Shown piece after piece: positions 6,278 through 62,242 of a stretch of DNA of 64,000 bases. This DNA comes from Nanobdellota archaeon. GTDB lineage: Archaea; Nanobdellota; Nanobdellia; Pacearchaeales; GW2011-AR1. The stretch spans positions 1,293 to 65,292 of the forward strand of contig JAQICZ010000014.1 of assembly GCA_027858295.1 (NCBI GenBank), in the 5' to 3' direction. The notes below the pieces were generated by a model. The model was given only the letters and a program-made list of their open reading frames with translations. It did no database searches and was not told the origin of the DNA. A program made the position numbers and the translations under genes. Positions within the stretch are counted from its first letter, which is position 1, and each line of letters starts with the position of its first letter.

Positions 6278-6285
6278 TGTTTTTA

Positions 6286-16119: not shown

Positions 16120-16300
16120 ATAAAATTTCGTCAAAACTTTTCCAAGGGTTTTGACTGCATATAAATTTTCATTTTCCTATACACCAAAGCGAATAGAATT
16201 TTTTCTTTAAAACTTTCCCCCGACGAATTTACATTGAAAACTTTTCCAAGGGTTTTCAATTGCCTGTAAATTTGTCCACAAGGGTTTTAAAGTGTCTCTA
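16120..16300 (-). repeat. Two copies of the recurrent upstream module (A/B/C boxes).
   Basis: aaaacttttccaagggttttgac is at 16133..16155 and gcgaata at about 16189. A second C-box, gaaaacttttccaagggttttcaattgcctgtaaa, lies at about 16237..16270. About 55 nt of it nearly match 6035..6085. Confidence 0.8.
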
Positions 16301-16327
16301 AAAAATGTTTTAATTAAACCTAAAGGT

Positions 16328-17335
16328 TTAATTTGAAGGTGCCACTCGTCCACCAAACTCAATGTTACCTTCACAAGTCCCCGCAAGTCCTTTAGGTACA
16401 TAAATTCTCCAATAAGTTGGTTTAACAGCCTCGTTAAAACCATCATTCTGTCTATAATCTAAATTAAACTCCATAACAGCTGGGTTTAAACTTGAAGTCA
16501 AATTCACATGTGCAGCCTCAAATTCACTTAGACTCAGAATCCCAGGATTAGTATCAGTCAAATTAAACTTTTCATATTCAATGTCAATAAACTTATAAGA
16601 TCCCTTAGAACAATTCATAGCATGACCATCATTAGGACCAGCACCCAAATTTGAATAACCATTCAAAGTCAAGTTTAACTGAGTGTTACCCACATTTGAA
16701 ACATTCACTAATTGCTCATCTGAAACTTCAGTCGAATTAACAATCCCATAATCAATAGAATCTTGTAAACCAATCGCAAGTAATGTGTTTATACTTCCTT
16801 CATCAATTTCCATATTGCTACGAGCCGTAGCATCCTCTATATAAACAGAACAATTCCAATTCCCAGGATTAGCATAATATTGAACCTCGAAAGTACAATT
16901 TGCAATTGCATGCCATTCATCTTCAGACTTACCAAATAAGTCAGTAGTATCATTTTGCTTTATACATGAAGCATTAGTATAATGAGTATTATTGTCATCC
17001 GCACTATCCCAAGTAGCTAAAGAGACATCAAACAAAGTTGCATTAATCAAAACAATATCACTATCATTATTCCAATCCTGAATCAAAGCTTGACATAGAA
17101 CAGTCTTAGTCGCATTCGGAGTCAAAACAACAGGAACTCCATCGTTAACAGAAATATTCAAAATCTCAGGAAAAACAGCCCCCACTTCCAATGAAGTAGA
17201 AACCGTAACATTCTGTGCAGCCCCACTCGAAGCCATTGGAACAATAGCCGCAGCCAAAAGTACAACTAAAGCTATTCCAAAAACAAAATAACTTCCAACA
17301 ATTCGTTTATTTTTTTTATTAACATTTTTTTCCAT
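16328..17335 (-). CDS. Family B secreted protein (paralog of 57248..58438).
   Basis: It has a signal anchor. The shared C-terminus is TYWR(I/V)YVP...G.CEGNI.FG. It starts 1 nt after the stop of the family A gene 17337..18128. Confidence 0.75.
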   Translation of the reverse strand: MEKNVNKKNKRIVGSYFVFGIALVVLLAAAIVPMASSGAAQNVTVSTSLEVGAVFPEILNISVNDGVPVVLTPNATKTVLCQALIQDWNNDSDIVLINATLFDVSLATWDSADDNNTHYTNASCIKQNDTTDLFGKSEDEWHAIANCTFEVQYYANPGNWNCSVYIEDATARSNMEIDEGSINTLLAIGLQDSIDYGIVNSTEVSDEQLVNVSNVGNTQLNLTLNGYSNLGAGPNDGHAMNCSKGSYKFIDIEYEKFNLTDTNPGILSLSEFEAAHVNLTSSLNPAVMEFNLDYRQNDGFNEAVKPTYWRIYVPKGLAGTCEGNIEFGGRVAPSN

Positions 17336-17336
17336 T

Positions 17337-18128
17337 TTAATCTAATTCCACATATAAGTAGTAAGCAGTCGACCCACTAAATCCATTTGCCCCATTTTCA
17401 GGAACAATCATTTGAAAATCATAAGCAGTCCCATCATAACCAGTTGCATCTTCTTCTAACAAACCAGCATAAACCGCATTCCCACCATCCCACAAAGCAA
17501 CTTCCTCAAAAGCAGTAGTAGAAACATCTCCAACATAAGGATTAACAGTATGAGTACATTGATTTGCATTTATCTGTATCCCAGCTGCGAAAAATAAACC
17601 GTGAGTAACATCTGAAAAAGTAGCAGTAATATTGTCGTTAGCACCTGAATGACTCATTGCCGTATTTTCTGTTTCTAAATCGGCAGTTGAAGCACAGGCA
17701 ATTGAACCCCAAGTTGGAGTTGTTAATTTTGTTGTCGCATAAATACGGCCTGTAACAGATGCCAAAGTCCAATCATAAATAGTATTTGCTGAAGAATCAT
17801 CCAAAGTAAAAGAACCAATCACATTTCCGACAAAAGCCTTCCATCTCGGATTCTGCATATTTGCAGTTAAATTGAATGTAGAAATAACTCCCCCAGAAAT
17901 ATTAACTTCAGTTCCCGCTGTAACCGACTTTGTCTCATTAACACCATAAACCAATCCATCAGTACCAGTCGGTGTAACCGCCGTAATAAACATAAGTGAA
18001 GTCACAACCATTAAAGTTGCAACTAATAATAAAATTCCTCTCTTCTCAATCTTGTTTTCTTTATTGTTTTTCATCTCTTCGCTTAGGATTTTATTAAAGC
18101 CTTCCTGTGGCTTTTGGGATTTTTTCAA
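17337..18128 (-). CDS. Family A secreted protein. An alternative start lies at 18074.
   Basis: It is very similar to 5279..6001 along the mature protein and ends in YYLYVELD. Confidence 0.8.
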   Translation of the reverse strand: MKKSQKPQEGFNKILSEEMKNNKENKIEKRGILLLVATLMVVTSLMFITAVTPTGTDGLVYGVNETKSVTAGTEVNISGGVISTFNLTANMQNPRWKAFVGNVIGSFTLDDSSANTIYDWTLASVTGRIYATTKLTTPTWGSIACASTADLETENTAMSHSGANDNITATFSDVTHGLFFAAGIQINANQCTHTVNPYVGDVSTTAFEEVALWDGGNAVYAGLLEEDATGYDGTAYDFQMIVPENGANGFSGSTAYYLYVELD

Positions 18129-18202: not shown

Positions 18203-18928
18203 TTATTCTAACTCTACATAAAAGTAGTATTGTCTTGTAGCTGTATCTATGTCATGTCCATCTTCTGGAACTAACATCTGAAAGTCATGATCCTTTTGAT
18301 CAAAACCTATAATACTAGCTTCTTCAATAATTGCTGTCCAAATAACTTCTCCACTTCCACCTTCAAGAATAACTTCTTCATAATCTGCTGCTTCACCTTT
18401 ACCATTGCTGTTAAAGATTCTTGTACTATTACAAGAATTAGCATCAATCTGAATATTATTCACAAAGAACTCACTATGAGTTGTCCAATTAAATGTTTCA
18501 TCCACACCATCAACATCATTACTTACAATGTCATATGACGCTTCTAAAGCCGCATTATCAGTGGCCATATCCCAACACTTAATACCTGTCCAATTGATAG
18601 TATCACCAGTTTCCGAAGCATACACTTCACCTTCTGGGTCAGCCAAACTCCAATTATACATTACGTTATCTGCACCATCTACTAATTGAATAGTACCTGA
18701 AACATTACCGAAGTAACCTTGCCAAGCCTGAGTAGTAGAAAAACCAGTAATTGTTAATTCCGTAACATTCCCTGCAATCGCAGTAGTAGAATCCGCCAAA
18801 TCAATTCCGGCTCTTGTTGAAGAACCTTCAACAATTGTTTCAACACCAAAAGGTTGAACAGAACTAACTGTAGATAAAGCTAACACACAAACTACAAGCA
18901 TTCCTATAAATAACTTATTATATCGCAT
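18203..18928 (-). CDS. Family A secreted protein, divergent paralog.
   Basis: Signal peptide MLVVCVLALSTVSSVQ. It carries AWQGYFGNVSG and HDFQMLVPEDG and ends in YYFYVELE. A GGAGG box lies upstream. Confidence 0.8.
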   Translation of the reverse strand: MRYNKLFIGMLVVCVLALSTVSSVQPFGVETIVEGSSTRAGIDLADSTTAIAGNVTELTITGFSTTQAWQGYFGNVSGTIQLVDGADNVMYNWSLADPEGEVYASETGDTINWTGIKCWDMATDNAALEASYDIVSNDVDGVDETFNWTTHSEFFVNNIQIDANSCNSTRIFNSNGKGEAADYEEVILEGGSGEVIWTAIIEEASIIGFDQKDHDFQMLVPEDGHDIDTATRQYYFYVELE

Positions 18929-19239: not shown

Positions 19240-19259
19240 AAATTGCAAAGCAATTTTAC
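19237..19259 (-). terminator. Perfect 10-bp hairpin overlapping the stop codon of the 4849-aa gene.
   Basis: GTAAAATTGC aaa GCAATTTTAC. The downstream minus strand includes AGTTTTG within the heptamers. Confidence 0.4.
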
Positions 19260-22200
19260 TGCAGCTCAACATAAAACACCGCTTCACTTCCAGCCCCACT
19301 ATATTCTCTTAACTTTGCCGGCACACGAAGTTCATAATCATAAGTACCATAATTACCAACAGCACCTTTGTTAATTTTAGAAACAAAAATCAAATCCTCT
19401 GCCTCTGCTATATCAAATTCACCATTAGTGTCATCAGATGAATCCCACAAAATACCAGTCTTAAAATTATTATTAGACGTAGACTGAGTCACAGGAACCG
19501 CCGGAAGGGTTCTACCAAAAACAGAAAAGCTATCCACCTCATTTGGAACAAAAGCTGTCAAATACAAGGCAGAGATAGAATCAGGAAAATCCACCATAGA
19601 AAGCAAACTATCAACTTCTAAAAAATCATCAACAGAATAAGCACTTACATTATTATAACCAAATGCCAAAACACTATCCCAGGAAACAGAACTATCCTTA
19701 TCACTCATAAACACGCTTGCACTAGCAAACCAATTAATCACAGAATTATTTTCTAAATCAGCCAACTCAAGTTCACTTGCCGACTCAATGTTACCATAAA
19801 AGAACTGCCAGGCCCCCACAGAAACATTCTCATTACCTAAATTATTATTTTCATCTCCCTCGGTAAAAGAATCTGCCCCGTCAACAACAACCCACAGCTC
19901 ATTCAAACCAATCACAGTATCATAACTATAATTAACATACAATACATCCGACACATTCAAATCAATAATCCGCTCCCCAATTTTAAAACCCGTAGCAGGA
20001 TATCCAGAATAGAATTCAACCAAAACCCCACTCGCATCAGCTATCCCAATATTGGAGACAGTCGCGTTAATCAAAATAGATTTTCCTTCCACCGGAGTTG
20101 AATCATTTAATGTAACAGCAGAAACAAAAAAGTCCGGATAACCATAACTAAAATTATAAATTTCACTAGTATTTACATTCCCAGTCAAATCAACACACTC
20201 AACTGACCAATTATGATTTCCTACAGAAATTCCATTTACATTTGATTGCCCAATACTATCATTACCTGCCCAAATATTATTTCTAACTTTTATATCATCA
20301 ACCAAGAGATCACACTGTATTGCAGTTGCCAAATTATCCGTTGGTCTCCACTGAAACTGCAATGGATCAATATTAGCATCTACCTTTGCATCAGCAACAG
20401 GGGCAACTAAACTTGCAAAAGGCGGAGTCACATCACGAGTAAAAATTGAATTTTCTACCCAAGCAACATTCGAATCCACATCTGAACAGGAAATGTTCCA
20501 ATAATGATTCCCCTCACTTATTCCGTTAACCTCGAACATATTTTCAACATTATTTTCAATCACCACATCTGCCCCCAAAGAACTACCGTCAAAAAACATT
20601 TCACACTGAGTTAATCCAGAACCATCTTTCGGGATATATGTGAAATTTACAGATGAATTTGTATCAAATGTATTATTCGTGGGTGAAACTATATCGATCA
20701 CAGGAGGAGCAGTCATTGTAAAACTCTTTTCTAAGGTCTCAAAAGAATTACCAGCCTCATCACCACATCTAATACTCCAACTATAATCTCCATCATGCAC
20801 ATCAACAAAACTCTCTGAAACCGTATTATTACTTGCCAAAACTCCAGATTCATTAAATCCATTAATTAAAATTTCACAATTTCCAACAGAATCTAAATTA
20901 TCAATATAAGTAAAATTAAATTTAAGATTATTCCAATCAAAAGTTTCACCACCAGTTGGATGATGGGTGATAATGTTAGGAACATGAGAATCAATACTCA
21001 GAAAAGAAGTTTCAGAATACCCAACCAAATTTAAATTATTATAACATTCAATACTCCAATTATGATTATTCTCGGTCAAAGTTTCTGTAAAAGAATTAGA
21101 TACCCAATTCTCAATATTTGTATCTACCGAAACAAAAACAGAATCCACATAAAGCGAACAATTAGCAAGACCACTGTTGTCTCCAACAGTGTAAGAAAAT
21201 GTCACATCTGTATCATTCGTCCAAACATTATTTTCAGGAGAATCAATTGCAACTTGAGGCGCTGCAAAATTTTCAAATTCATATTCTAAACTCGAAACAT
21301 AATTTTCTCCCAAGTCAACACAACTAGCACCCCAAGTATGATTATTAGAATTTAATGAATGAACAAAAGAAACGTTAACTCCTTCACTTGCCAAAATACT
21401 TTCATTAACAATTACATCATCAATAGTTAAATTACAATATGCTTCAGATGAATATAAATCATCAAACCAAAAAGTAAAATTAACTTCACCGCTATAAACT
21501 TCACTATTATTTAATGGATATGCTAAAGTTAAATTAGGCGCAGTTAAATCTTTATAAAAAAATCTATCTTCACTAATTGATTCCAATAAATAAACATCTG
21601 TACAATTTACAGCATAATCAAAATATCCTTGTGAAAGTGAAGTAATGTCAAAAATATTTTGTGAATCAGTCACAATTGAACTGATCGTATCAAAAACTAC
21701 GCCTCCAATTATAAGCGAACAAGAGGTAATATTGCTATTATCATTTGGTGTATATTCAAGAGAATTAGTCAAATAAGAATTATTTGCATCATTCAAATTA
21801 ATAGTTGGTGACTCAGCAATAGTGATTACTTGCTGTTCACTAAATTCAACATTATTATCCATATCAATACATGAAACATTCCAATATTTTGGACCATCAC
21901 CTAAAGAATTAACAAGATAATTAATTAATGTATTATTTGGAGCAGTAATTCCAGAATACGAAACATCCCCAACATAAAGAGTACAATCCATAGAATCATC
22001 TGTATTATCTATAACAGTAAAATTAAAATTAACTGAAGAACTAGATGAAGTAAAAGAATCAATTGGTAAATTTAAAGTAATAACGGGACCAACGGTATCC
22101 ATATCACGAATAGTAATACTCCTGTCTCCAGTTGTACCAATTAAATCAGAAGAATCTCTCGCCAAAACAGAATAATCATAATCCCCATAAGTCAAATTAT

Positions 22201-25200
22201 TAAATTCGATATTAAAATAATATTTATCCAAATCTTTTTTATAAAAATTTGTTCTATTCTTAATTATTAATTCAGATGAATTCAAAATCTTATCATAAAT
22301 TTTAACCTCATCTATATAACCATCAAAAAAGTAAGAAGGAGTTATTCCATTATATCCCATTCCTAAATTAAATTTCAAATCACTTGGTAAAGTCACCGTA
22401 GTTGAAAAAGTTCGGACAACCTCACCATCATAGATAATTGATATATTTTTACCTTCATAAAAAGCAAAACCAATTTGATGCCAATCCCCATCAACCAAAA
22501 CTGAATTTGAAATAGTTCTTCCATAAGAATCTGCCACACTCAAAAAATTAGAACCAGCAGCATGACCAATAGATAAAAGGGTATTTCCCGCGGAGTCATC
22601 AATAGACAAAATGCTTTCCTCATTGACAATAGAGCTTGTTTTAACCCAAGAAAGAATTGTTATATTCTTTGAAACAAAATTATAGGGCGCTCCAATTTCT
22701 ATATAATCCGAATCTCCTCTAAAAAATCTATAAGCACCAAGACCATCATGTCCTTCTCCACTAATCCAACTAGCACCGTTATTGTCACCAAGCGCCCCAC
22801 TTACATAATCATAAATATTATTACTATTCTCCGAAAAAGTCGCCAAATTATCAAGACCAATAAGTCCAATCAAAGAACCATCATAAATAAAATTATTAGT
22901 TCCATTAAAATCTAAAACTACTTCTTCTAAATTTGCTTCAGTTAAATCAACATCAATAATTAATCCATCTGGCAAATGATCCGAAGAATCTGCTGGAGTT
23001 AAACTTCCAAAAACAAGAGATGGGTTAATCGTATCAATTGCAAAATTGTAAATTGTCAAATTTTCATTATTAGAAGAATCACGACAAGAAAATGCAATTA
23101 TGTGATTTCCCTCAGAAACAGAATTTAATGTCATATCAAAATGAGTATCATTAACACGATTCATAGAAACAGAAGATGCAGAATCTAAAACATATGAACA
23201 ACTATTTCCATATTCGTCTAAGTAAACATCAATATTAAAATTTCCTGTTGTGTAAGCACCTTCATTTTCAATTCCAGTGATTACTAATTGGGGTGCAACA
23301 ACATCTCCAAATTTAGTAGAAACCGTTCTAGTTATTTGACGAACACCCCCATAATAATTTTCAGCATAAGTAGTGAACATATAATCATCATTAATGAGAG
23401 AAGTTTCATTTACAAAAAAAGTTCTCTGACCAGTATACAATTCTTTAGCTTCCTCATCGCTAATTACTCTATCATAAACTACAAACTTATCAAATGACCC
23501 ATTAAAATATTCAGGTGTTCCACCTGTATCTTCAATACGACCAAAGGAATAAAAATTATTAGTAACGTTTCCAATATAAGAAATAGCTTGTTGATTTAAT
23601 TCCCCATTAATATAAATCTTTGAGGAACCATTATTTGCATAACGACTAATTACAATATGCTTCCAAGTCCCATCATTAATTGGGACTGTTGATTTTACTG
23701 CCGCAGAATTCGCAACAGTATATCCAATATGCCCAGTTGCATCAAGCCAACCAATAAAAATATCATTTCCTCCTCCTGCTTCTTCAATACCAGTCACTCC
23801 AGGAGCCATCCACATAGTGTCATCCCCTACTTGTGTTGTCTTTACCCAAAAAGATAATGAAGAAGTTGAACCCAATACAGGGGTTAAAGAAACGTCAGTT
23901 TGAATGTAGTCATTAACTCCATCAAAACTTAACGCAAGCCCCTCATATCCAGTTGTATAATTAGCACCATAAATTGTTCCATCAATTCCCCCAACAAAAG
24001 AAGAAACATGAGTATCATTCTCTCCCCTAAATTCTTCACGATCTAAATTATATCCAAGCATGATTAATGAATTGAATAAAGTCTGATTTACACCATTAAA
24101 ATCTAAAATAACTGTGTTCAAATCGGTTTCATTAACACTAATATTAATTGGAATAAAATCTTGTGGAACTTCAATGCCATTAACAGGTGTAGGATTAATA
24201 TAAGATGCTCGCGGAACTTTAATGACATCTACCGTAGGCATTAAAAAACCAAAAGCATTTCCATAATCATATCTAGCATAACATCTAAGAATTGCATTTC
24301 CAGGTGAAATAGCCATTACAGGTATATCTTCAGACACAGAACCATAATTAATTGTTCCCAAATCCCGCCACTCATATCCGTCACCAAAAATCAAATGCTC
24401 ATTATTATTATGAACATTGACCCACACAGAATCATTCAAATATTGCAAAGTCAAATCCACATTTACACATTCCCCAATAGAACAATTAACTTGACAAGTA
24501 AAATTATCTTCTTCCGCTTCCGTCATAACTTTGTCATTAACAGGATAAAGAAAATCAGTATATAATTGCCCAATCAATGAAAAATCCGAAAACTCAACGA
24601 AAGAAGCTTTTAATCCATCCCAACGATGAATTAATGTTACATTTCCAACATTATCATTATATCCAGAAATCACAAGTTTTATTTTATCAGAATTTTTTAA
24701 AATGAATTCATTAGGAACAATACAATTTGAAGTCCATACTCCAGAAGTCGCACTAACACGCAATCCTCCAGTATAATCATTTCCAGATTGACAAATTAAA
24801 TTATCACCACTTGAATTTTCAAAATATAATTTCCATGTTAAATAAACTGCATTCACAGTATCAACCTCTGTATATGAACTGAAACTTACAGTAGCTCCAG
24901 TTGGAATTCTCATACCATTATTTCCTAAATATGTTGTCATCGGAATAACAAAATCAGTAACAGAAGAACCAGATAAATTAATGGATAAATAATTTTCAAT
25001 TAAATCTCGCTTATTCTTTAAATTTATTTGGGCAACATTTCCAACAAAATTTGAAGTCGAAGATTCATACAGCCGATTATTCCAATCAATACTATACTCT
25101 CCAGTAACATTAATTTGCCTTGATGAACTAATCACTTCACGATTAGAATAATCAAGACAACTAACAAACCAATCATGAATACCATTAGAAACAAAAGTTT

Positions 25201-28200
25201 GAATATTTTCAACTGTATCATTTAAAATATTATAATTTGCTCCAGAGATTTCTGAATCCAAGAATAAAGAACATTCTTTAATTCCATAATTATCATCTGC
25301 TATAAAACCAAAATCAATTGTATTTGAAGTTGTATTATAATGATCTATTGGAGCATCCAAAATAATTCCTGGATTTGTTAAATCAATATTAAACTCAACT
25401 AAATCACTTACATACTCGACTGAAGAAGGATCAACACAATAAAATACTGCAGTATGATTTCCTTCTGCTAAACCATAAACACTATTAACAAATGACGTCG
25501 GTGTGACTAATGTCATTGAAACATTTGCGGCAAAATCTAATGAATATTTACAACTAACGGAAGCAAGTTTTGTATTTACTTTGAAATCCACATCACTAGA
25601 ATTATAAGATTCATTTTGTGGAGTATCTAAAATCACAAACGAGTTTATCGGGACTCCCATTTCAATAACTTGCCAGAAAGCATCATTGGTTTGATCACCA
25701 GTTCCCTTATAAAATTCTAAATTAGTGTCACTAGTTAAATAATTTGTTAATGCAGAATTTGCAAAAGTTGTTCCACCACCAGTTGAATCATGTGATTCCA
25801 GACTGAAAGCTTTAGACGAATTCACAGAAGAAATTGGTTGATTGATTGCACTAGATCCAGAAATACTCCTAGTTCCATTTTGAACACCGATTTCTAAAGA
25901 CTCAACAACAAACCAAGACACAGTAGAGTCACCAGTAGTTCCAGTCCGATTAAAATCAATTTTATTTGAAAATAAAGTAGAACGAACATTGAGCTCATCA
26001 AGTCCAGTAGCACCAGAATCAAAACTATTTGAAGTGATTAAAAATGCAGTTGAAGTGTCAACGCTCTTACTCAAAGAAACAGTTCCAGAACTTCCGGAAA
26101 AAGTAGTTGCACCTACCTGAACTTTAGAACCACTCCATTCTATTGCCTGCCAAGCAATTTCACCAAAAGCCCCAACCTGACTTCTCTCGAAATTTAAATA
26201 AGAGGTATTACTAAATTTAGAATTAAAAAATCCATAAACATTTTCAGCAGTATCTGTTGAGGATAATTTGTTTGATGAAATAATAAAACTTTTACTCAAA
26301 TTAAAATTCTCTGTAAATGCAGTCACCGCAGAATCACTTGCTAAAAATGGAGAAATTCCACGACGCACAAAAATATTTGAAGATTCTATAACCTGCCAAT
26401 CAATATTAACAACTCCTGAAGTAGAATAGCGACTAAAAGTAATATTGTTTTTATTCAAAACTCCTTCAATTTGAATCTGTGCAGGAGTACTAGTTGACGA
26501 ACGAATTGAAAATAATAAAAAAGCATTTGCTAAATAATCAGTAGTTAAAGGAATGACTGTTTCACTCTCCCCGTTGGCAATTATTGTTCTTCCTTTTACT
26601 ACTTCTGGAGAAAAAGTAGTAACAATATTAAAATTACTAGAATTAATTCCTGCACGACCATTCTCTCCTAAACAAGAAAAATTAACATAATTAGCTCCAT
26701 TACGAACATAATCATCTGATGCAGAATAAAAAGTTGTATTTATTTGAGTCATCAAAACAGGCGGACCAGAATTTAAAGAATAAGTACAATTTTCAATTGT
26801 CACGTTGCTCTGTACTGCAAAAACAACTGGACTAGAATTTATTTGCCCAAAAGGAGAAACAACTTCTATTACTGGAGCAGATAATTTTTTCACCGTCACA
26901 AATCGATTATTTCTTGCATAAGACATTTCCCCTATAATATTTTCACATCGAATATTCCAATCAAAACTAACATTAGACAAATTTGTTAAAGTGAATTGTA
27001 CAGTAGCACTTTTTCCACTTACAGATTTAGTTTCACCTAATTGTAAAGAACCACTAGCACTATGAACCAAATTACATTCTTTCAAATTCGCTTTTGCTTC
27101 AACATTTGCAACAAAAGTTAAATTTGCTGGATCCAAATCATATTCTGCATAATTATTCTCTGGACTAACAAGACTTATTTGAATTGCATCTTTTCTCGTT
27201 GGCCAAGTAACAACTTCACAATTAATGTTATGAGACGGATCAGTATTTCCCGTTCTTCCTCTTTCAAATTGAATAGTAGTATTATCATAATAAAATGCAG
27301 GGTATTCTCCTCTAGACGAAGCTGTCCCTTCCCCATTAAGGAAAGAATAAGAACAAAATAAACTACTTGCATTCAAATCAATTTGCGATGGCAAAGTTGA
27401 ATTAAATATTGTATTATCTCCAATTTCTAAATCTGTTGGTGTATGATGTATAGCAGAAGAATAAACTCCTTCTTCAAATTCCACAACATAAATTTCACAT
27501 TCTTGAGGAGCAGTTCCGCCTGTACCCAGTTCTGAAGTTAAACAAGTAACTGTTGATGAATCTTTAAATTTACATTGTATATTTACATCTTCAATTCCAT
27601 ACTCTTCAGAACGACAAGAATGAATTAAAAATGAATTATTCAAGTTAACAGATTTTCCAATATCAAAATCAACCCCTGTATCCAAATGCACTTCTCCAGT
27701 ACTAATATTAGTAACTCTCGAGTTATCATTAAAACACACAACATCCGCCCGCACTTCCCGATTTCCACAAGCCCTTGTATTCGCCTGCACAGATAAAATA
27801 TTTTGAGATTCAAATTTACCCATAAAAAGTCCTTCTCCTCGACAAGAAGCATCTGAACTTGAAGACATCACATTATTTCTAACTGAAACAAAGCATTTAT
27901 CTTTGTAATTGCTTGGCATAAAAGCACAAGCAGAAGCCAAACTAATATTTAATTTATCAATTCCATTACCAACAATTCCCTCGACGTGACATGTATCAAT
28001 ATATTCCGTTTCCAAAAGACTATAAGACCCCACCATCGAATCAGTAGTCCCAATACGTTCAATAGTTAATTGATTTGAATAACCTCCAGTAATATTTGAA
28101 AAATAAAACATTCCATCTGCATTATTTGGAGCAGTGTTTGTTGATGCAGATATCTGACTATCCACAATCATAAATGCATGATTAACATAATAATTATTCT

Positions 28201-31200
28201 CTAAAGTTATATTTGTTTGAGTTCCAGAAACATATCCGAAACCAGATTCAGCTTGAACTTGCGCCCTCAAAGAAAAATCAGAAATAATAAAATCAGCAAT
28301 AGCAATATTAATTTTATTTGTTTCATCCAAAACAACATCTAATGCATAATTTACAGGATTATAAATAACAAAAAATTCCCAAATAGAATATAATGGACCA
28401 GTTGCATTAACAGCCCACTTAGAATTACAATAATCCCCTCCTTTCATACCAGATAAACAAGGCAAATTTAATGGGCTCAAAGGATTCTGCATTATTGTAT
28501 AAAATGGAACTCCAGAATTCATTGGTACTATTCCCTTGCTATTAACATCTGCCCACCTTTCAAAATTTCCAATTGAAATTAAATTTGCTTGATTTTCAAT
28601 TAATTGATATGTCTGATTAATCCAGTCTGCACTTCGTGAAATTCCAGAGATTGTTACTTCATCAATTGTCCCCACATATCCTTGTCCCCCATCAGTCATA
28701 TCTCCAATTGCTAACCCATCAATTCCATCATAATCTGCAATCCCGCCAGTATGTGCAACAGTACTAAACAAAACCCCATCCACATAATACATCGCATGAG
28801 TCCCATTATAAGTACCAGTCAATAAATACCATGTTCCATCCGCCATAGTATATGTTGCAGAACTTGTTGCCGTTGTTGTACTTGCAACATGCCACATTAA
28901 ATCAGTATCGCTTCCAGCATTTAATTCAAATCCATAAGCTCCCCACGGAGAATTATCGTTAGGACCATACCATAATGGTTTTGCATAATCTACTTGAGCC
29001 CCATTTCTTTTAAGCCAAAGTGAAACCGTTATTGCACTAGTAGGTTCCAAATCTATTGTTCGAGGTACTTCAATTACATCTGCTCCATCAAACTCTTGTG
29101 CTAGTCCAATCTTTCCAGTCGTTTCAACTGCTCCACTATTTACTGCATCATTTGCATTAATAGTTGAATCATATTTTGTTCCAGTTGTTCCATTCAAATG
29201 CCAAACTCCCAAATGATTTGAATCCCAAACTCTCGAAACATCCTCGCCAGAAACAGCCAAAGAATTATTGTAATACATACAAATTGAATTAACTCCTGCT
29301 GAAAACAAAGGCGCCCTAACCCAAACATCGGCATAAAGCGTATCATAATTTTCAATTTCAAAATCCATTTCTACTCCACCTTCAGAAGAACAACTTCCAT
29401 TAACAAACCTCAAATCCGCCAAATCTGTTTGCATTTCAGATTCTACTGGAAGTTTCAAATGAACTGGAAAATCAATTAGTGATGATACTCCACCATTAGT
29501 AATATTAATTTCTTTTCTTAAAACCCAAGAAGAATTCCACCAAATAAGTTCAGGGTCCAGCGTTGCATTGATGTCACCACATTCACCTCCGGAACAAGTT
29601 ACTCTTGATGTTATATTAAAAAAATCATTTTGTAAAACACTCGCACTCGTTGACGGAGAAACAAAATATGAACTTAATGTTCCCCAAGGAATAAACCAAT
29701 TAGAAGATCCATAATCAACATGAGAACCATTATCATAACATTCAATATTCAATGCAAAATCTCCAGAATCCTCAACTACCCAATTAAGATTATCACGAAT
29801 CCAATAATCACTCACATTTGACGTAGAATTCACATTAAAAATTGTGCTACTATCTGGAATATTTAATAATTCAAAATTTACTCCTACAACACTTCCCTTA
29901 TTACTTGTGCAATTTGCTCTAACTCTAGTAATAACCTCACCATAATTAATATCAGAACAATTTTTCCAAATACTATTCTCTTCACAGTCTATTGAATTTA
30001 TCACAGAATTTCCAAAACTTGTTGTTGTTGAAATAGTCAAATTTATCGAAGGAGTTTGAGTTGTATTAACATAAGAACTATAATTTATTGAATCATAAAT
30101 TGTAAAAAATTCCCAAGAAGAATCCAATCCACCAGTTGCATTAACAATCCAACTATTCACACAAGAATCACCATCTTTCATATCTGCCAAACAAGCAGTA
30201 TCTATGTAATTCACAGGATTTTGACTTGTAGTATAAAATGGAACACCTGTATTCATTGGGATTATTCCTTTGAAATTTTCACTAGCTTCTCCATATAATA
30301 CCAAATTATTTTGATTTTGAATTAATTGATATGATTCATTAATCCAGTCTGCGCTTCGAGGCGTATCTGAAAATCTCAATTCATCAACTTGCCCATCCAA
30401 ATGAGTTTCTTCTACAGCAGTTGATCTATAACCAAATCCTGACCGCAAAGGTTCTCCCGAAATAACATTCAATGCCTGTCCAGAACAAGTTGTACTTGTA
30501 GCAACACTTTGACCATCAATATATGCCGTAGCTGTAGTCCCATCAAAAGTCAAAGCATAATGATACCACTCACCCAAATTCACAGCACCACCTGCAAAAT
30601 ATCCTTCTGTTCCACCACAAGTTACCCCAAAAGTTGGAGCTCCAGCACTTACAGCAATTCTAAAAAGATAGTTTGCCCCCCAACCCAATTGTGACCCTTT
30701 CCATAAAATCGGATTATGGTCTGGCGTCGTCCATGTGTCAGCCTTTGCCCAACCCTCTGCTGTAAAAACTTGTTTTTGTAAATCAGTAGAATCAGGTACT
30801 TCAATTCTTTGTTGATTATTTCCTCCAAGGTCATAACCAGAAGCAACTTTCGCAGATGCTAAATAAGTAGGAGTAGTTCCTAGTGGTGCTCCATTATTAC
30901 CATTTCCCGTTGAATCTAATAAAAAATCTCCAGTCCCGCTAGCTTCTTCTAAATGCTGAACTGTCATATAATTGGAGTTCCAAACTCCAGCTGCATTCCC
31001 CCGATTAACTGCATTCGAGTTATCATAATACATACAAATTGAATTTATACCAGAATAAAAATTTGGTACTCTTAACCAAACATTTGCAAAAGTAGAATTA
31101 TAACTTTCAATCTCAAAATCCACCTCAGAACCACCACCCGTTTGACACGCGCCATCCACAAATCTTAAATCATCCAAATTTGAACCCATTTGTGATTCAA

Positions 31201-33805
31201 TTGGAAGTTCTAAATAAATGGGAAAATTCGTTAATATTGACGCCCCCACATTTGTAACATTAATTTCTTTTCTAAAACCCCAAGAAGAATTCCACCAATT
31301 CTCCAATGGATCAAGTGTCGCATTTACATAACCACACTCCCCCCCCATACAAATAACATTTGACGTGAAAGTAAATAAATTATTTTGAGCAACTGTTTCA
31401 TTTTGGTTGGGTACAACCAATTCTGATGTCAAAACTCCCCAATCAACAAACCAAGTTGATTCACCAGGACTAGGCAAGGGAACATCATCAAAACAAGTAA
31501 TATTCAAAACAAAATCTCCTGAATCATCAATTAAAACATCTGAATTATCATACGTCCAAAAATCTCCTGCATTTGAAGTTGAATTAGAATTAAAAAAGAC
31601 ATTAGAATCAGGGGTATTTAATAATTCAAAATTTGCTTCGCTAATTGCCCCCCCAATACTTGTACAATTTACCCTAACTTGAGTTATAGTTTCTCCAAAA
31701 TCTATTTCATTACAATTTTTCCACGAACCAGACTCTTCACATTGAATTTCATTTACTTGTGCAGAACTACTTTGTTCATCTACCCTAAATACCACATCAT
31801 CGGTATCACTCCACGTTTGAACATCTCCACATGTATTTGTGACATCCCCATTATATTGAATAATTCCTCTAACTACATGATCTCCAGAAGAACCAGTCAA
31901 AACAAAATCAGAACTAAATAAATAGAAACCCCCATTTACAGGACAAGTGCCAACCGAATCAATAATCGTCCAAGAAATACTAGACGCATCATTAGCATAG
32001 ATTAAATTTAAATTATCATTCGCATTATTATAACAATATGCCCAAACATCTACCCTCACAGTGTCCCCATCCTCTATAGAACTACCATTCAAGCTAGTTA
32101 TAGTAATGTTTTCTATATTCTCATCCGTTAGATATGTCCCATCAGAAGTACCATCAATACAGGAATCTACTGTATTTGGATTGTTTGGCTCAGAAGTCCC
32201 CCCCATGCCCTCTTCTGCAATCAGCAAAGTTGTTGGTGCAACACAAGGAGAATCTGAAATAGAACAATACGGCGCCCCAAACCCAGGATTATATGCTGCA
32301 GTAGGATCTACAACATAATCAAAATAAACACTCCCTTCTTTAACCAACAAATCAAATGTATTTTGATCTCCAACCAACTCTTTCAAAAATATTTGGTATT
32401 TTTTATCCTCTTTAATTATTCCAAAGTCTGCAATTAAAACATCTGAATCTTTTTCATAAACTTCTACGCTTGCACCTTCGTCTGATTTCGCATAAATTGT
32501 TATATCTTTTGAGCTATCCAAAAGTTTTTCAAAAACAACACGTATGTATTCTCCTGCAGGAATTGCTACAAAAATATTATCTCTTTCCCTCACCTCTTCA
32601 TAAATATTTTTAATAAAATTTCTTTCACTGTCTAAATGTTCAGCTGCATTAATTATAATTATTTCAAACGTCTGCGTAGACAAATGGGGAACGACAAAAT
32701 AAATCTCATCAATAAAACCATTTCCATCAGTATCATTAACTTCAAAATCTAAACTTTGATTTTCTTCAACCCAATTAAGCTTAATCTCTTTCTTATCTTT
32801 AGCATATTCATTAATTTTCGTAGAAGTATAAACGTTTTTGTAACCCAAATAATCAGGAGCACTAACAACCACTTCTTTTGCTTTCTCACCTAATTCTTTC
32901 TCACTTATTTCTGGAGCAGGAGTTTCATATTCGATTCTGACTTTTCCTAAAGACTCATTTAAAACGACTTCTCTCTTAGCTACCTCCTTAGAAAAAACAG
33001 AAACAACCTTGTTGTAAATATTCACATCAGCCCCAGCCCCAACCAAGCTCCCATTTTGAACAAAACTCACATTACTAGCAGCATATGGAATTAAAACATT
33101 CCCCGAACTGGTATTTACCCACTCACTCCAACGCACATTCTCCCCAACCCTAATTACACCAATAACAACCAAAGCCCCCTCCTCTCCAATCTCATCAATT
33201 TCTTTCAATGATTGGACATTCAACTGTGACACTATAGAATTACTCGTATTCTCATTCTTTTTAGTCACACCTCTAGTTGTAATATTTGTATTTTCCTCCA
33301 ATAACCCATTAACCTCCTCGTCCTCACTAATATTTTCCACAGGATCTATTGGATAAGTTAGTGTGACATCCTGCTCTAAACTCTTAACCCTTGCTGTTTC
33401 TACCTCCTCTTCTGTTTCAAAAACTTCAAAATAATTAATTTCCTTACGTCCCTCAGACTGAATCGTGAATTTATACTCTCCAATCTCAATCAACTCAAAC
33501 AAAAAAGTATCTTCAGTCCCCTCTTTCAAAAACACATTAGAGGGGGTATCAATCCTAAGTTCATAATCGACATAATCCGACAAATCAACTCTCAAATTTT
33601 CCCCAACAACATAGCCCTCTTTCTGAATAAAATTAGCCCCAGCAAAAGACAAAGTTAAAATTAACAATAAAGCTAACAGAAAACCGCTAACAGAAAACCG
33701 CTGCCTACCTAACTCTTTGCCCCTCAAGCTTCTAGCCTCCAGCTTACAGCTTACAGCTACCTGCCCCATTCCTTCTTTCTTATCCCCCATATTATTATCT
33801 CTCAA
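19256..33805 (-). CDS. Giant surface protein, 4849 aa. An alternative start is Met13 at 33769.
   Basis: Single uninterrupted ORF. It has an N-terminal signal anchor FLLALLLILTLSFAGA and a head of about 450 aa paralogous to that of the 6119-aa protein. Also present are two DUF2341+LamG modules, further LamG-like domains, Ig-like repeats, a CARDB-like domain and a C-terminal family A domain. Confidence 0.9.
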   Translation of the reverse strand: MRDNNMGDKKEGMGQVAVSCKLEARSLRGKELGRQRFSVSGFLLALLLILTLSFAGANFIQKEGYVVGENLRVDLSDYVDYELRIDTPSNVFLKEGTEDTFLFELIEIGEYKFTIQSEGRKEINYFEVFETEEEVETARVKSLEQDVTLTYPIDPVENISEDEEVNGLLEENTNITTRGVTKKNENTSNSIVSQLNVQSLKEIDEIGEEGALVVIGVIRVGENVRWSEWVNTSSGNVLIPYAASNVSFVQNGSLVGAGADVNIYNKVVSVFSKEVAKREVVLNESLGKVRIEYETPAPEISEKELGEKAKEVVVSAPDYLGYKNVYTSTKINEYAKDKKEIKLNWVEENQSLDFEVNDTDGNGFIDEIYFVVPHLSTQTFEIIIINAAEHLDSERNFIKNIYEEVRERDNIFVAIPAGEYIRVVFEKLLDSSKDITIYAKSDEGASVEVYEKDSDVLIADFGIIKEDKKYQIFLKELVGDQNTFDLLVKEGSVYFDYVVDPTAAYNPGFGAPYCSISDSPCVAPTTLLIAEEGMGGTSEPNNPNTVDSCIDGTSDGTYLTDENIENITITSLNGSSIEDGDTVRVDVWAYCYNNANDNLNLIYANDASSISWTIIDSVGTCPVNGGFYLFSSDFVLTGSSGDHVVRGIIQYNGDVTNTCGDVQTWSDTDDVVFRVDEQSSSAQVNEIQCEESGSWKNCNEIDFGETITQVRVNCTSIGGAISEANFELLNTPDSNVFFNSNSTSNAGDFWTYDNSDVLIDDSGDFVLNITCFDDVPLPSPGESTWFVDWGVLTSELVVPNQNETVAQNNLFTFTSNVICMGGECGYVNATLDPLENWWNSSWGFRKEINVTNVGASILTNFPIYLELPIESQMGSNLDDLRFVDGACQTGGGSEVDFEIESYNSTFANVWLRVPNFYSGINSICMYYDNSNAVNRGNAAGVWNSNYMTVQHLEEASGTGDFLLDSTGNGNNGAPLGTTPTYLASAKVASGYDLGGNNQQRIEVPDSTDLQKQVFTAEGWAKADTWTTPDHNPILWKGSQLGWGANYLFRIAVSAGAPTFGVTCGGTEGYFAGGAVNLGEWYHYALTFDGTTATAYIDGQSVATSTTCSGQALNVISGEPLRSGFGYRSTAVEETHLDGQVDELRFSDTPRSADWINESYQLIQNQNNLVLYGEASENFKGIIPMNTGVPFYTTSQNPVNYIDTACLADMKDGDSCVNSWIVNATGGLDSSWEFFTIYDSINYSSYVNTTQTPSINLTISTTTSFGNSVINSIDCEENSIWKNCSDINYGEVITRVRANCTSNKGSVVGVNFELLNIPDSSTIFNVNSTSNVSDYWIRDNLNWVVEDSGDFALNIECYDNGSHVDYGSSNWFIPWGTLSSYFVSPSTSASVLQNDFFNITSRVTCSGGECGDINATLDPELIWWNSSWVLRKEINITNGGVSSLIDFPVHLKLPVESEMQTDLADLRFVNGSCSSEGGVEMDFEIENYDTLYADVWVRAPLFSAGVNSICMYYNNSLAVSGEDVSRVWDSNHLGVWHLNGTTGTKYDSTINANDAVNSGAVETTGKIGLAQEFDGADVIEVPRTIDLEPTSAITVSLWLKRNGAQVDYAKPLWYGPNDNSPWGAYGFELNAGSDTDLMWHVASTTTATSSATYTMADGTWYLLTGTYNGTHAMYYVDGVLFSTVAHTGGIADYDGIDGLAIGDMTDGGQGYVGTIDEVTISGISRSADWINQTYQLIENQANLISIGNFERWADVNSKGIVPMNSGVPFYTIMQNPLSPLNLPCLSGMKGGDYCNSKWAVNATGPLYSIWEFFVIYNPVNYALDVVLDETNKINIAIADFIISDFSLRAQVQAESGFGYVSGTQTNITLENNYYVNHAFMIVDSQISASTNTAPNNADGMFYFSNITGGYSNQLTIERIGTTDSMVGSYSLLETEYIDTCHVEGIVGNGIDKLNISLASACAFMPSNYKDKCFVSVRNNVMSSSSDASCRGEGLFMGKFESQNILSVQANTRACGNREVRADVVCFNDNSRVTNISTGEVHLDTGVDFDIGKSVNLNNSFLIHSCRSEEYGIEDVNIQCKFKDSSTVTCLTSELGTGGTAPQECEIYVVEFEEGVYSSAIHHTPTDLEIGDNTIFNSTLPSQIDLNASSLFCSYSFLNGEGTASSRGEYPAFYYDNTTIQFERGRTGNTDPSHNINCEVVTWPTRKDAIQISLVSPENNYAEYDLDPANLTFVANVEAKANLKECNLVHSASGSLQLGETKSVSGKSATVQFTLTNLSNVSFDWNIRCENIIGEMSYARNNRFVTVKKLSAPVIEVVSPFGQINSSPVVFAVQSNVTIENCTYSLNSGPPVLMTQINTTFYSASDDYVRNGANYVNFSCLGENGRAGINSSNFNIVTTFSPEVVKGRTIIANGESETVIPLTTDYLANAFLLFSIRSSTSTPAQIQIEGVLNKNNITFSRYSTSGVVNIDWQVIESSNIFVRRGISPFLASDSAVTAFTENFNLSKSFIISSNKLSSTDTAENVYGFFNSKFSNTSYLNFERSQVGAFGEIAWQAIEWSGSKVQVGATTFSGSSGTVSLSKSVDTSTAFLITSNSFDSGATGLDELNVRSTLFSNKIDFNRTGTTGDSTVSWFVVESLEIGVQNGTRSISGSSAINQPISSVNSSKAFSLESHDSTGGGTTFANSALTNYLTSDTNLEFYKGTGDQTNDAFWQVIEMGVPINSFVILDTPQNESYNSSDVDFKVNTKLASVSCKYSLDFAANVSMTLVTPTSFVNSVYGLAEGNHTAVFYCVDPSSVEYVSDLVEFNIDLTNPGIILDAPIDHYNTTSNTIDFGFIADDNYGIKECSLFLDSEISGANYNILNDTVENIQTFVSNGIHDWFVSCLDYSNREVISSSRQINVTGEYSIDWNNRLYESSTSNFVGNVAQINLKNKRDLIENYLSINLSGSSVTDFVIPMTTYLGNNGMRIPTGATVSFSSYTEVDTVNAVYLTWKLYFENSSGDNLICQSGNDYTGGLRVSATSGVWTSNCIVPNEFILKNSDKIKLVISGYNDNVGNVTLIHRWDGLKASFVEFSDFSLIGQLYTDFLYPVNDKVMTEAEEDNFTCQVNCSIGECVNVDLTLQYLNDSVWVNVHNNNEHLIFGDGYEWRDLGTINYGSVSEDIPVMAISPGNAILRCYARYDYGNAFGFLMPTVDVIKVPRASYINPTPVNGIEVPQDFIPINISVNETDLNTVILDFNGVNQTLFNSLIMLGYNLDREEFRGENDTHVSSFVGGIDGTIYGANYTTGYEGLALSFDGVNDYIQTDVSLTPVLGSTSSLSFWVKTTQVGDDTMWMAPGVTGIEEAGGGNDIFIGWLDATGHIGYTVANSAAVKSTVPINDGTWKHIVISRYANNGSSKIYINGELNQQAISYIGNVTNNFYSFGRIEDTGGTPEYFNGSFDKFVVYDRVISDEEAKELYTGQRTFFVNETSLINDDYMFTTYAENYYGGVRQITRTVSTKFGDVVAPQLVITGIENEGAYTTGNFNIDVYLDEYGNSCSYVLDSASSVSMNRVNDTHFDMTLNSVSEGNHIIAFSCRDSSNNENLTIYNFAIDTINPSLVFGSLTPADSSDHLPDGLIIDVDLTEANLEEVVLDFNGTNNFIYDGSLIGLIGLDNLATFSENSNNIYDYVSGALGDNNGASWISGEGHDGLGAYRFFRGDSDYIEIGAPYNFVSKNITILSWVKTSSIVNEESILSIDDSAGNTLLSIGHAAGSNFLSVADSYGRTISNSVLVDGDWHQIGFAFYEGKNISIIYDGEVVRTFSTTVTLPSDLKFNLGMGYNGITPSYFFDGYIDEVKIYDKILNSSELIIKNRTNFYKKDLDKYYFNIEFNNLTYGDYDYSVLARDSSDLIGTTGDRSITIRDMDTVGPVITLNLPIDSFTSSSSSVNFNFTVIDNTDDSMDCTLYVGDVSYSGITAPNNTLINYLVNSLGDGPKYWNVSCIDMDNNVEFSEQQVITIAESPTINLNDANNSYLTNSLEYTPNDNSNITSCSLIIGGVVFDTISSIVTDSQNIFDITSLSQGYFDYAVNCTDVYLLESISEDRFFYKDLTAPNLTLAYPLNNSEVYSGEVNFTFWFDDLYSSEAYCNLTIDDVIVNESILASEGVNVSFVHSLNSNNHTWGASCVDLGENYVSSLEYEFENFAAPQVAIDSPENNVWTNDTDVTFSYTVGDNSGLANCSLYVDSVFVSVDTNIENWVSNSFTETLTENNHNWSIECYNNLNLVGYSETSFLSIDSHVPNIITHHPTGGETFDWNNLKFNFTYIDNLDSVGNCEILINGFNESGVLASNNTVSESFVDVHDGDYSWSIRCGDEAGNSFETLEKSFTMTAPPVIDIVSPTNNTFDTNSSVNFTYIPKDGSGLTQCEMFFDGSSLGADVVIENNVENMFEVNGISEGNHYWNISCSDVDSNVAWVENSIFTRDVTPPFASLVAPVADAKVDANIDPLQFQWRPTDNLATAIQCDLLVDDIKVRNNIWAGNDSIGQSNVNGISVGNHNWSVECVDLTGNVNTSEIYNFSYGYPDFFVSAVTLNDSTPVEGKSILINATVSNIGIADASGVLVEFYSGYPATGFKIGERIIDLNVSDVLYVNYSYDTVIGLNELWVVVDGADSFTEGDENNNLGNENVSVGAWQFFYGNIESASELELADLENNSVINWFASASVFMSDKDSSVSWDSVLAFGYNNVSAYSVDDFLEVDSLLSMVDFPDSISALYLTAFVPNEVDSFSVFGRTLPAVPVTQSTSNNNFKTGILWDSSDDTNGEFDIAEAEDLIFVSKINKGAVGNYGTYDYELRVPAKLREYSGAGSEAVFYVELQ
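19259..19816 (-). other. Family A domain forming the C-terminus of the giant protein.
   Basis: GAWQFFYGNI, FKTGILWDSS and AVGNYGTYDYELRVP, ending in AVFYVELQ-COOH. These align with family A's W.(G/A)(Y/F)(F/V)GNV, FEEVALWDGG and ATGYDGTAYDFQMIVP, ending in YYLYVELD-COOH. Confidence 0.75.
19817..20131 (-). other. CARDB-like domain (approximate bounds).
   Basis: VEGKSILINATVSNIGIADASGVLVEFY...NELWVVVD...EGDENNN is the typical CARDB pattern. Confidence 0.6.
28590..29550 (-). other. DUF2341 plus LamG/ConA-like module number 2 of the 4849-aa protein (approximate bounds).
   Basis: WWNSSWVLRKEINITNGG..FPVHLKL..DLRFVNG..MDFEIENYD..VWVRAP..ICMYYNN..VWDSNHLGVWHL, then LamG-like sequence ending in SRSADWINQTYQLIENQ. 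Confidence 0.7.
30310..31300 (-). other. DUF2341 plus LamG/ConA-like module number 1 of the 4849-aa protein (approximate bounds).
   Basis: WWNSSWGFRKEINVTNVG..FPIYLEL..DLRFVDG..VDFEIESYN..VWLRVP..ICMYYDN..VWNSNYMTVQHL, ending in PRSADWINESYQLIQNQ. Confidence 0.7.
33672..33769 (-). repeat. Fourteen in-phase heptamer units inside the 5' coding end of the giant gene. They include two perfect 14-mers and two perfect 7-mers.
   Basis: gctaacagaaaacc occurs twice (33672..33699) and gcttaca twice (33742..33755). All units from 33672 to 33769 keep one 7-nt phase. The stretch encodes MGQVAVSCKLEARSLRGKELGRQRFSVSGF. Confidence 0.85.
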
Positions 33806-33822: not shown

Positions 33823-34026
33823 TTATTTAATAAATGACCACAAGTTCATTCGCCCGACTCTAAACCCATTCACCTTTCCAGCAATCTGAAGCATCAAACA
33901 ACGAGTCTGCACAGAATGCCACGGCTTATTTAATTTAATAGAAATATCTTGAGTAGAAACAAGCTGCTCGCTAGAACTTAATAATTTTACAATTTTCCCC
34001 TGTAATTCATCCCCTTTAACAGTCAC
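33823..34026 (-). CDS. Small winged-helix DNA-binding protein (67 aa, GTG start) directly upstream of the giant gene.
   Basis: KIVKLLSSSEQLVSTQDISIKLNKPWHSVQTRCLMLQIAGKVNGFRVGR has a wHTH-like pattern. An AGGGGAAG SD lies 8 nt upstream. Confidence 0.55.
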   Translation of the reverse strand: MTVKGDELQGKIVKLLSSSEQLVSTQDISIKLNKPWHSVQTRCLMLQIAGKVNGFRVGRMNLWSFIK

Positions 34027-34034
34027 TTGATTCT

Positions 34035-62122: not shown

Positions 62123-62139
62123 TATTATTTCCATCCAGA

Positions 62140-62235: not shown

Positions 62236-62242
62236 CCAAGCT

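Follow-up and report, generated by a model that had tools for sequence, protein, structure and literature searches.

A domain shared by a giant surface protein and small secreted proteins points to an undescribed way of mounting adhesins on DPANN archaea

We analyzed a stretch of 64,000 nucleotides from a Nanobdellota archaeon (contig JAQICZ010000014.1 of assembly GCA_027858295.1, positions 1,293 to 65,292; hereafter the window), which is AT-rich (about 35% GC), carries nearly all of its genes on the minus strand and encodes a secreted surface protein of 4849 amino acids (aa), here called the giant, followed by genes for small secreted proteins of two families, A (A1 and A') and B (Table 1). 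The C-terminal end of the giant is, as judged by profile comparison, a diverged copy of the uncharacterized, extracellular and beta-rich domain of the family A proteins (A domain), and the giant, A1, A' and B genes form a conserved cassette. We propose, with a probability of roughly one half, that the A domain serves as a homotypic co-assembly or docking module by which adhesins would be attached to a surface assembly of A, A' and B. All functional statements made here are based on sequence, predicted structure and gene order.

The giant consists of an N-terminal Sec-type hydrophobic segment, four Laminin_G_3 stretches (Pfam E-value (E) 2e-68), many immunoglobulin (Ig)-like repeats, a CARDB domain (PF07705, E 2.1e-7; 31.5-38.1 bits vs a gathering cut-off of 22.7) and the A-like C-terminal domain, and contains 126 N-glycosylation sequons. 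It ends in ...AVFYVELQ. An earlier reading of this DNA, made without database searches (the sequence-only reading), had claimed that the last ~185 residues, encoded by 19259-19816, align with the family A proteins down to their terminal YVEL. These boundaries were essentially right, with a homologous core that begins at W4666 (AWQFFYG) and occupies 19259-19810. When a profile of giant-type C-termini (n=14, mostly C-terminal fragments at contig ends, with CARDB in three) was compared with a profile of family A (n=37), hhalign returned a probability of 97.7% (E 1.7e-12) over 188 columns, and both profiles reached the C-terminus in the alignment, at the YVEL-x end. As a control, the same giant-type profile was compared with family B, resulting in a probability of 0.4% and an E of 0.14. 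Because the profile-profile comparison is significant and the family B control is nil, the relation between the giant tail and family A is real homology; a comparison that could have revealed the two to be unrelated thus gave the opposite result. Pairwise BLAST of the giant tail against the family A open reading frames (ORFs) was weak (E 8.5e-4 to 0.46, calculated with the window ORFs as the only database), and a MAFFT alignment of the same sequences contained 19 invariant columns spread over the full length. A hidden Markov model (HMM) of the C-terminal domain, which scored E 3.8e-95 on the giant, matched the four family A ORFs (E 1.9e-6 to 3.7e-4) and no other ORF in the window.

The two versions of the domain differ in several respects. 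The giant copy lacks the N-terminal extension found on free-standing A proteins. In the latter, the motif HDFxMLVxEDGH (residues 214-225 of A1) is nearly invariant and cysteines C118 and C166 are invariant, whereas the giant-type domain lacks the motif, where it reads YDYELRVPAKLREY, and both cysteines. We suggest that these residues may form a metal site and a disulfide peculiar to the free subunits.

The sequence-only reading had suggested looking for the domain on giant ORFs of related genomes, and it is indeed abundant at their C-termini. When 1.84 billion cluster representatives were searched exhaustively with a profile for the module of CARDB plus A-like domain, 2480 proteins matched at E<=1e-3, 1214 at E<=1e-10 and 689 clusters at E<=1e-30, and the domain ended within 5 residues of the protein C-terminus in all 150 of the matches listed. 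The proteins that carry it range from a few hundred to 7158 aa; complete mid-size relatives (about 520-650 aa) have Sec signals, and CARDB stands directly before the A-like domain in 9 of 10 that were checked. The domain was found at 290 loci in species-representative genomes labeled almost exclusively as Pacearchaeota, Woesearchaeota and Nanoarchaeota, several times per genome in some. The A domain is a lineage-wide family, restricted to Nanoarchaeia-type DPANN archaea, that has neither annotation nor structural relatives. We also observed that the ~520-650-aa class (P0271, P0274, P0283, P0285, P0303, P0325 and similar proteins) has a common N-terminal domain after the signal peptide (AHYIxGYVxDAxDGxSANG...LWNPxxGxxDNxTD...DCExLxxPC), for which Pfam gave no match.

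The gene order around the giant is conserved as well. The sequence-only reading had placed an A gene immediately downstream of the giant, followed by an A-B operon, and had built on this synteny. Indeed, A1 starts 327 bp after the giant stop, and the A' stop and B start are one nucleotide apart. A 322-kb contig from a relative has the same order as the window, namely a giant (3643 aa, ending in FYVEVY), A (241 aa), A' (246 aa), B (330 aa) and tyrosyl-tRNA synthetase. We then ranked genome loci by similarity to the domain of this giant and scanned the best 80 using HMMs built for the C-terminal domain and for families A and B. In other Pacearchaeota and Woesearchaeota species-representative genomes, 44 long proteins with the domain had at least 3.5 kb of sequence downstream of them, and behind 33 of these the same strand encodes exactly A, A' and B. 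Since the order recurs across related genomes, the link between the giant and A, A' and B represents a conserved cassette and no local accident. The first A gene of the cassette scores ~1e-105 and the second ~1e-45 against the A1 model, a gap that marks A1 and A' as separate groups, each conserved in its own right.

The free-standing family A proteins have the predicted features of secreted subunits. A1 is 100% identical to the hypothetical protein PF542_02240 of a Nanoarchaeota archaeon, and its 893 homologues are all named 'hypothetical', with no Pfam domain in any of them; relatives of the family come from Pacearchaeota, Nanoarchaeota and Woesearchaeota bins, which places the organism among Nanoarchaeia-type DPANN archaea. 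Across 40 A1 and 31 A' homologues, the N-termini are ordinary Sec signals with signal-peptidase I sites of the A-x-A type (V-x-A / L-x-A), and the mature N-terminus is conserved as VxPFG in A1 and as ADPxGP or TPTGP in A'. Processing of A1 and A' by signal peptidase I is thus predicted, as in the Sulfolobus threads discussed below. No class III pilin-type signal ([KR]G motif) is conserved in these 40 and 31 homologues, nor do their ordinary Sec signals fit type IV pilins; a type IV pilin had been considered for A' owing to a 'KRG' before the hydrophobic stretch of the window protein, and this idea was dropped along with faint Pilin_N matches for B, as the motif is not kept in homologues. The AlphaFold2 (AF2) model of A1 (mean predicted local distance difference test (pLDDT) 80.4) comprises a signal helix, low-confidence residues 23-56 and a core of ~11 strands and one helix (pLDDT about 80-96). 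Conservation is close to complete in the strand AGNVTELxIxG and at the ends of the tail, whose placement is nevertheless uncertain in this monomer model (pLDDT 46-63), and sequence conservation is very high over the whole domain. N-glycosylation sequons are abundant in the giant, A, A' and B. The conserved signal-peptidase sites and N-termini, the tail, the AGNVTELxIxG strand and the sequons would be expected of an assembling surface subunit, and we count them in favor of the docking reading.

Searches of Pfam and NCBIfam with A, A', B and the giant tail returned nothing besides CARDB, Pfam runs on 37 proteins of family A and 55 of family B gave scattered noise only, and PDB sequence-profile searches with A and with B produced no match. 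Family B, with 112 homologues that all bear the source name 'hypothetical protein' and have no Pfam domain among them, was modeled at a pLDDT of 91.5 as two tandem beta-sandwich domains. Foldseek retrieved RbmA, FimH, CfaE, CsuE, AgI/II C-domains and the HPI S-layer protein for this model (E 3e-5 to 1e-3, at low template modeling (TM) scores), so that B reads as a generic tandem Ig/fibronectin type III (FnIII) surface protein in the predicted structure. A distant kinship of B with family A was ruled out by hhalign (29% over 10 columns).

A third setting of the A domain was found in an ATPase that is genetically linked to family A in related genomes; it lies beyond the window and was thus invisible to the sequence-only reading. 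On contigs with other family A paralogues, we observed a second conserved context that begins with a DUF87/HerA protein of 1144-1227 aa and two coiled-coil proteins (~108 and ~280 aa), sometimes adds a ~600-aa protein and a small protein, proceeds to A, a winged-helix regulator and A, and ends with four more genes including a B paralogue, and then a giant. The layout of this long-form ATPase comprises a hydrophobic helix at ~30-55, an ectodomain of ~630 residues, a second helix at ~680-705 and a cytoplasmic P-loop domain. In the representatives on contigs L085 and L089, PF01935 scored 38.9 bits vs 23.2 and HerA_C 28 vs 22; the Walker A and B motifs read VAGATGMGKS and LLVFDEVHRL, and the nearest solved chains are HerA helicases. 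An ectodomain profile of 11 orthologues aligned with family A at 99.0% (E 3.4e-18, 177 columns) and with the giant-type domain at 94.9% (E 4.5e-8), while single ectodomain sequences reached 96.2% and 96.7% against family A. At all nine long-form loci with enough downstream sequence, one or more family A genes lie 1-3.5 kb downstream on the same strand, and the A gene of L085 shares 4 bp with the gene before it. A short form of the ATPase (about 780-820 aa) lacks the A-like domain, and at four loci a ~628-aa domain-bearing protein stands convergent beside it. Because the cassette B gene is located a few kb upstream of the ATPase at several loci, the giant cassette and the ATPase cassette form one larger surface-gene region.

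The A domain therefore exists alone as a secreted protein with a tail, without a tail at the C-terminus of adhesins, and close to the membrane on the outside of a HerA-type ATPase. By sequence reading, the giant, A, A' and B have no recognizable membrane anchor once their signals are cleaved, and therefore must be retained by binding something. As the three settings are linked genetically across many species and the secreted partners have no anchor, they are most simply explained if A domains bind each other, either directly or via a common partner. We likewise infer that a structure is formed, its polarity and any role that the ATPase may have. In this model, A1 and A' would be exported by Sec and cut by signal peptidase I, exposing the conserved N-terminus and the ~30-residue tail before the domain. 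Together with the tandem-Ig protein B, they would build a short fiber, stalk or lattice on the cell surface, on which the giant LamG/Ig adhesin and other proteins with CARDB plus A-like domain would be mounted via their own A-like domain. The giant copy would act as an end piece because it has no tail. The two-pass HerA-type ATPase of relatives, with its A domain just outside the first membrane helix, stands out as the candidate for a membrane-side partner or assembly platform.

Donor-strand exchange is a possible but rather unlikely mode of joining, to which the conservation of the tail and the AGNVTEL strand in spite of their low pLDDT gives an indirect clue. If strands were donated, by the AGNVTEL-type strand or by the tail, the giant, able only to accept one, would be placed distally, A1 and A' would serve as donors as well as acceptors, and the ATPase ectodomain, whose strand adjoins its membrane helix, would occupy the membrane end. 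In an extended form that we regard as quite unlikely to hold in full, the A domain would be the common connector of an undescribed surface apparatus of Pacearchaeota/Woesearchaeota-type DPANN archaea, with a HerA/FtsK-type translocase as its base, a polymer of A1/A' and B, and giant LamG/Ig adhesins as caps, joined by their tail-less A domain. A1 and A' would then polymerize on the outside A domain of the translocase, possibly by strand complementation through the N-terminal tail or the AGNVTEL strand, and the symbiont would be attached to its host; owing to the family of the ATPase, DNA or other macromolecules might pass between the cells.

Several observations weigh against the docking reading. 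Foldseek found no structural match in the PDB for the family A model (best E 0.37, TM<0.2). The full set of A, A' and B follows none of the 21 mid-size (~620-aa) domain-bearing proteins, which do not adjoin A genes in this way (one has two A genes and no B), and 9 of the 44 long proteins have no A gene within 4 kb, indicating that the cassette linkage is strong but not obligatory. The synteny counts are moreover biased toward orthologues because of the ranking of loci by similarity to this giant's domain. The ATPase chain runs on past the last strand of the domain (YYFFTDP...), and a free YVEL-x C-terminus, strictly conserved though it is elsewhere, is thus not needed for the fold. Finally, the ATPase lies outside the window, at whose right end every contig of this genome stops some 100-200 bp upstream of the winged-helix regulator, and we infer its presence in this organism from relatives.

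The strongest competing explanation, tentative in our view and less probable than docking, is that each A domain independently binds a common non-protein component of the envelope, such as a glycan, a lipid or an S-layer sugar, and that the proteins are retained separately; on this view A1 and A', which consist of the domain only, would be envelope proteins and might themselves make up the surface layer. SLH domains, and the CWB2 domains of Clostridioides difficile SlpA and Cwp proteins, are wall-anchoring modules of the S-layer and of many wall proteins. The A domain resembles them in that one module is common to small, abundant structural proteins and to many large, diverse surface proteins, but it shows no homology to them in Pfam and is also fused to a membrane ATPase. 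The occurrence of the module on hundreds of differing proteins of 400-7158 aa, several per genome and many of them away from A genes, is consistent with such an anchor, as are the position of the ATPase copy directly after the first membrane helix, beside the membrane, and the secreted partners that have no other anchor. However, an independent anchor leaves unexplained why two conserved domain-only paralogues and B follow the giant in a fixed order (33/44), and why a conserved N-terminal tail persists in the free proteins but not in the fused copies. In addition, PDB profile, Foldseek and Pfam searches detected no similarity of the A domain to a known carbohydrate- or wall-binding fold.

It is improbable that the giant is held by an uncleaved N-terminal signal-anchor and exposes the A-like domain as a distal head that binds the host, the free A proteins then being lectin-like binders, either soluble or competing. 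Such a head would fit the presumed role of DPANN giants in host contact, the lone hydrophobic segment at the N-terminus of the giant, the lack of an anchor at its C-terminus and the adhesion-type CARDB and LamG domains that adjoin its A-like domain. Nevertheless, a good cleavage site for signal peptidase (SFA/GA) is present in the N-terminal segment, a host-binding head would be expected to vary whereas this domain ranks with the best-conserved parts of these proteins, the same domain is membrane-proximal on the ATPase, and operons are shared with domain-only proteins in many species. More improbable still is an export or sorting tag that would be read after Sec export by a machine including the HerA-type ATPase, following the logic of type IX C-terminal domains (CTDs): the domain is strictly C-terminal, with exactly one residue past EL in the free A proteins and most of the C-terminal-domain sequences read, its cargo is diverse and the linked ATPase belongs to a translocase superfamily, but a tag of 184 residues would be large, A1 and A', which have no cargo, would be pointless as tags, the catalytic part of the ATPase is cytoplasmic and its A-like domain outside, no peptidase or sortase partner appeared in Pfam/NCBIfam scans of the cassette, and the matches to type IX CTD families (CHU_C, Por_Secre_tail) amount to two of 37 family A members hitting CHU_C at E 0.05, which is noise level.

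We compared the proposed docking with known filament systems. The nearest functional parallel, by analogy, would be the threads of Sulfolobus acidocaldarius, which are built from the subunit Saci_0406, with the related Saci_0405 as putative cap (PMC9715654). Family A, as predicted from sequence and model, shares with the threads Sec export, signal peptidase I cleavage, a conserved N-terminus, a tail with a beta-rich head (~11 strands) and heavy N-glycosylation (PMC9715654). Both also have a neighboring gene for a related-fold protein proposed as end piece, and no known assembly machine (PMC9715654). By contrast, there is no detectable sequence or structural similarity between the two (empty PDB profile search; no Foldseek match at E<0.3), and the candidate end piece here is the C-terminal domain of a 4849-aa protein without a tail, whereas Saci_0405 keeps the tail and lacks the acceptor site (PMC9715654).

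The sequence-only reading had likened the giant to tip adhesins that carry a pilin-like domain, and this likeness holds in part. As in the chaperone-usher adhesins FimH, PapG, CfaE and CsuE, a subunit-like domain lacks the N-terminal extension of the subunit and the genes of adhesin and subunits are clustered; the family B model also retrieves FimH, CfaE and CsuE among its generic matches. However, this archaeon has no outer membrane, the A domain is present on hundreds of proteins as opposed to one adhesin per operon, and Pfam/NCBIfam scans of the window proteins found no chaperone, usher, sortase or type IV pilus machinery. For family A, chaperone-usher Ig-like pilins appeared among PDB entries only at E>1 and TM<0.2 in Foldseek, and the fold of bundling pili/TasA was matched neither in Pfam for 37 members nor in Foldseek. 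Against the PDB and viral predicted structures together, Foldseek gave nothing below E 0.05 and TM<0.25 throughout; weak FimA-usher, CFA/I and adenovirus-knob rows were dismissed as noise. Thus, the absent extension agrees with a tip adhesin, but no fold match to pilins, threads or bundling pili was obtained. Because hundreds of surface proteins carry the domain as a general module at their C-terminus, the surface-anchor or docking part of the earlier hypothesis describes it better than an adhesin dedicated to the tip.

CedB of the Ced system is a HerA/FtsK-superfamily membrane ATPase of archaeal DNA transfer. The linked ATPase resembles CedB-type systems in being a membrane-bound HerA-type P-loop ATPase encoded beside cell-surface or appendage genes. 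It differs in its ~630-residue ectodomain that opens with an A-like domain and in the two coiled-coil proteins that follow, and its loci, known from related contigs only, contain no Ced or VirB2-type pilin. The literature that we searched contained no description of family A or of a DPANN HerA-type surface system.

The right end of the window corresponds to the second half of the ATPase context, from the regulator to a second giant (giant 2). The order of regulator, A, 437-aa protein, 725-aa protein, B', 397-aa protein and giant 2 is identical in contigs L087 and L089; the family A paralogue is the first gene of this second cassette, lies upstream of giant 2 and has a matching context in the same contigs. 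Giant 2 carries no A-like C-terminal domain by HMM and ends in a different C-terminal domain (...EGFEVSMTEDYAWLQQ).

Table 1 Features of the window and of related contigs discussed in the text, in order of position.
Feature	Position	Strand	Basis or remark
Family A' paralogue, ends LYVELD	5279-6304	minus	HMM; 71% identical to 17337-18128
Family B, 335 aa, secreted glycoprotein, two tandem Ig/FnIII-like beta-sandwich domains (predicted)	16328-17335	minus	AF2, Foldseek
Family A', 263-aa ORF, ends LYVELD	17337-18128	minus	famA HMM E 5.8e-46; TPTG / ADPxGP-type mature N-terminus
Family A1, 241 aa, ends YYFYVELE	18203-18928	minus	Sec signal, VxPFG mature N-terminus, ~30-residue tail, A domain
Giant surface protein, 4849 aa, secreted	19256-33805	minus	ORF call and sequence
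A-like C-terminal domain of giant, W4666-Q4849, 184 residues, ends FYVELQ-COOH	19259-19810	minus	hhalign and HMM
CARDB (PF07705), residues 4557-4655, directly before A-like domain	19841-20137	minus	Pfam
Giant 2, 6119 aa	37527-55886	minus	Last gene of second cassette
397-aa protein	55978-57171	minus	No Pfam match; second cassette
Family B paralogue (B'), 410 aa	57248-58480	minus	38% identity to B, E 2.5e-57; famB HMM E 3.9e-104
725-aa protein	58652-60829	minus	No Pfam match; second cassette
437-aa protein	60926-62239	minus	No Pfam match; second cassette
Family A paralogue, 228 aa, ends FFVELD	62582-63268	minus	famA HMM E 4e-74; second cassette
Winged-helix regulator (HVO_A0114/ArsR-like)	63303-63920	minus	Pfam; between two family A genes downstream of ATPase in relatives
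Long-form two-pass membrane HerA/DUF87-type ATPase	L085:3164-6847; L089:855-4289 (related contigs, beyond window)		A-like domain starts ectodomain

Several further observations were made in the window. A repeated DNA element of ~85 nucleotides, read on the gene-sense strand, occurs at 6089-6168, 6197-6276, 16215-16311, 34030-34117 and 62140-62224; its core AATCATTCGCTnTnGCGTATGAGAAAACTTTTTTCAGACAGGTnAAATCGATTGG contains a short imperfect hairpin and an A/T run, the two tandem copies are 98.8% identical and the others 77-82%. The A' paralogue and giant 1 (the 4849-aa protein) have copies on their upstream side, B has one just past its end, and another lies at the 5' end of the 437-aa ORF. Rfam returned no match over the whole window, the element included, which may be a shared terminator, promoter or leader of the surface-gene cluster. 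The first ~100 residues of the A' paralogue ORF (repeats of GRMGNKRRNHSLLRMRKLFSDRSNRL) are the translated element; judging from its sequence, translation of this paralogue probably begins close to MGRTNGKRGG and yields a protein of the usual size for the family, so that the long N-terminal extension would be left untranslated. Directly upstream of giant 1, a 67-aa ORF (33823-34026, minus strand) looks by eye like a small winged-helix DNA-binding protein (…LVSTQDISIKLNKPWHSVQTRCLMLQIAGKV…) and might be a local regulator. The left part of the window encodes a protein of 923 aa that combines Ig-like domains with an ice-binding-like one (PF11999, E 9.5e-72; 327-3098, plus strand), a TspO/MBR membrane protein (4166-4636, minus strand) and a 966-aa subtilase (PF00082; 6990-9890, plus strand).

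In summary, a large adhesin that shares a module with small structural subunits or with an anchor follows a known principle, whereas no account of this fold, of its components or of a tie to a HerA-type ATPase was found in the literature that we searched. DPANN archaea represent a large share of archaeal diversity, and most are thought to live attached to other cells. We know of no cultured representatives of Pacearchaeota or Woesearchaeota, nor of an account of how their giants are held or their hosts contacted. The A domain family, the giant-A-A'-B cassette and its HerA-type ATPase link thus provide concrete, testable targets for the attachment apparatus, and the C-terminal domain offers an easy sequence marker by which surface adhesins can be found in such genomes. 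If the A domains do polymerize, they would represent a further, non-homologous class of archaeal surface filament. Collectively, our findings point to an undescribed way in which giant adhesins are mounted on the DPANN cell surface.

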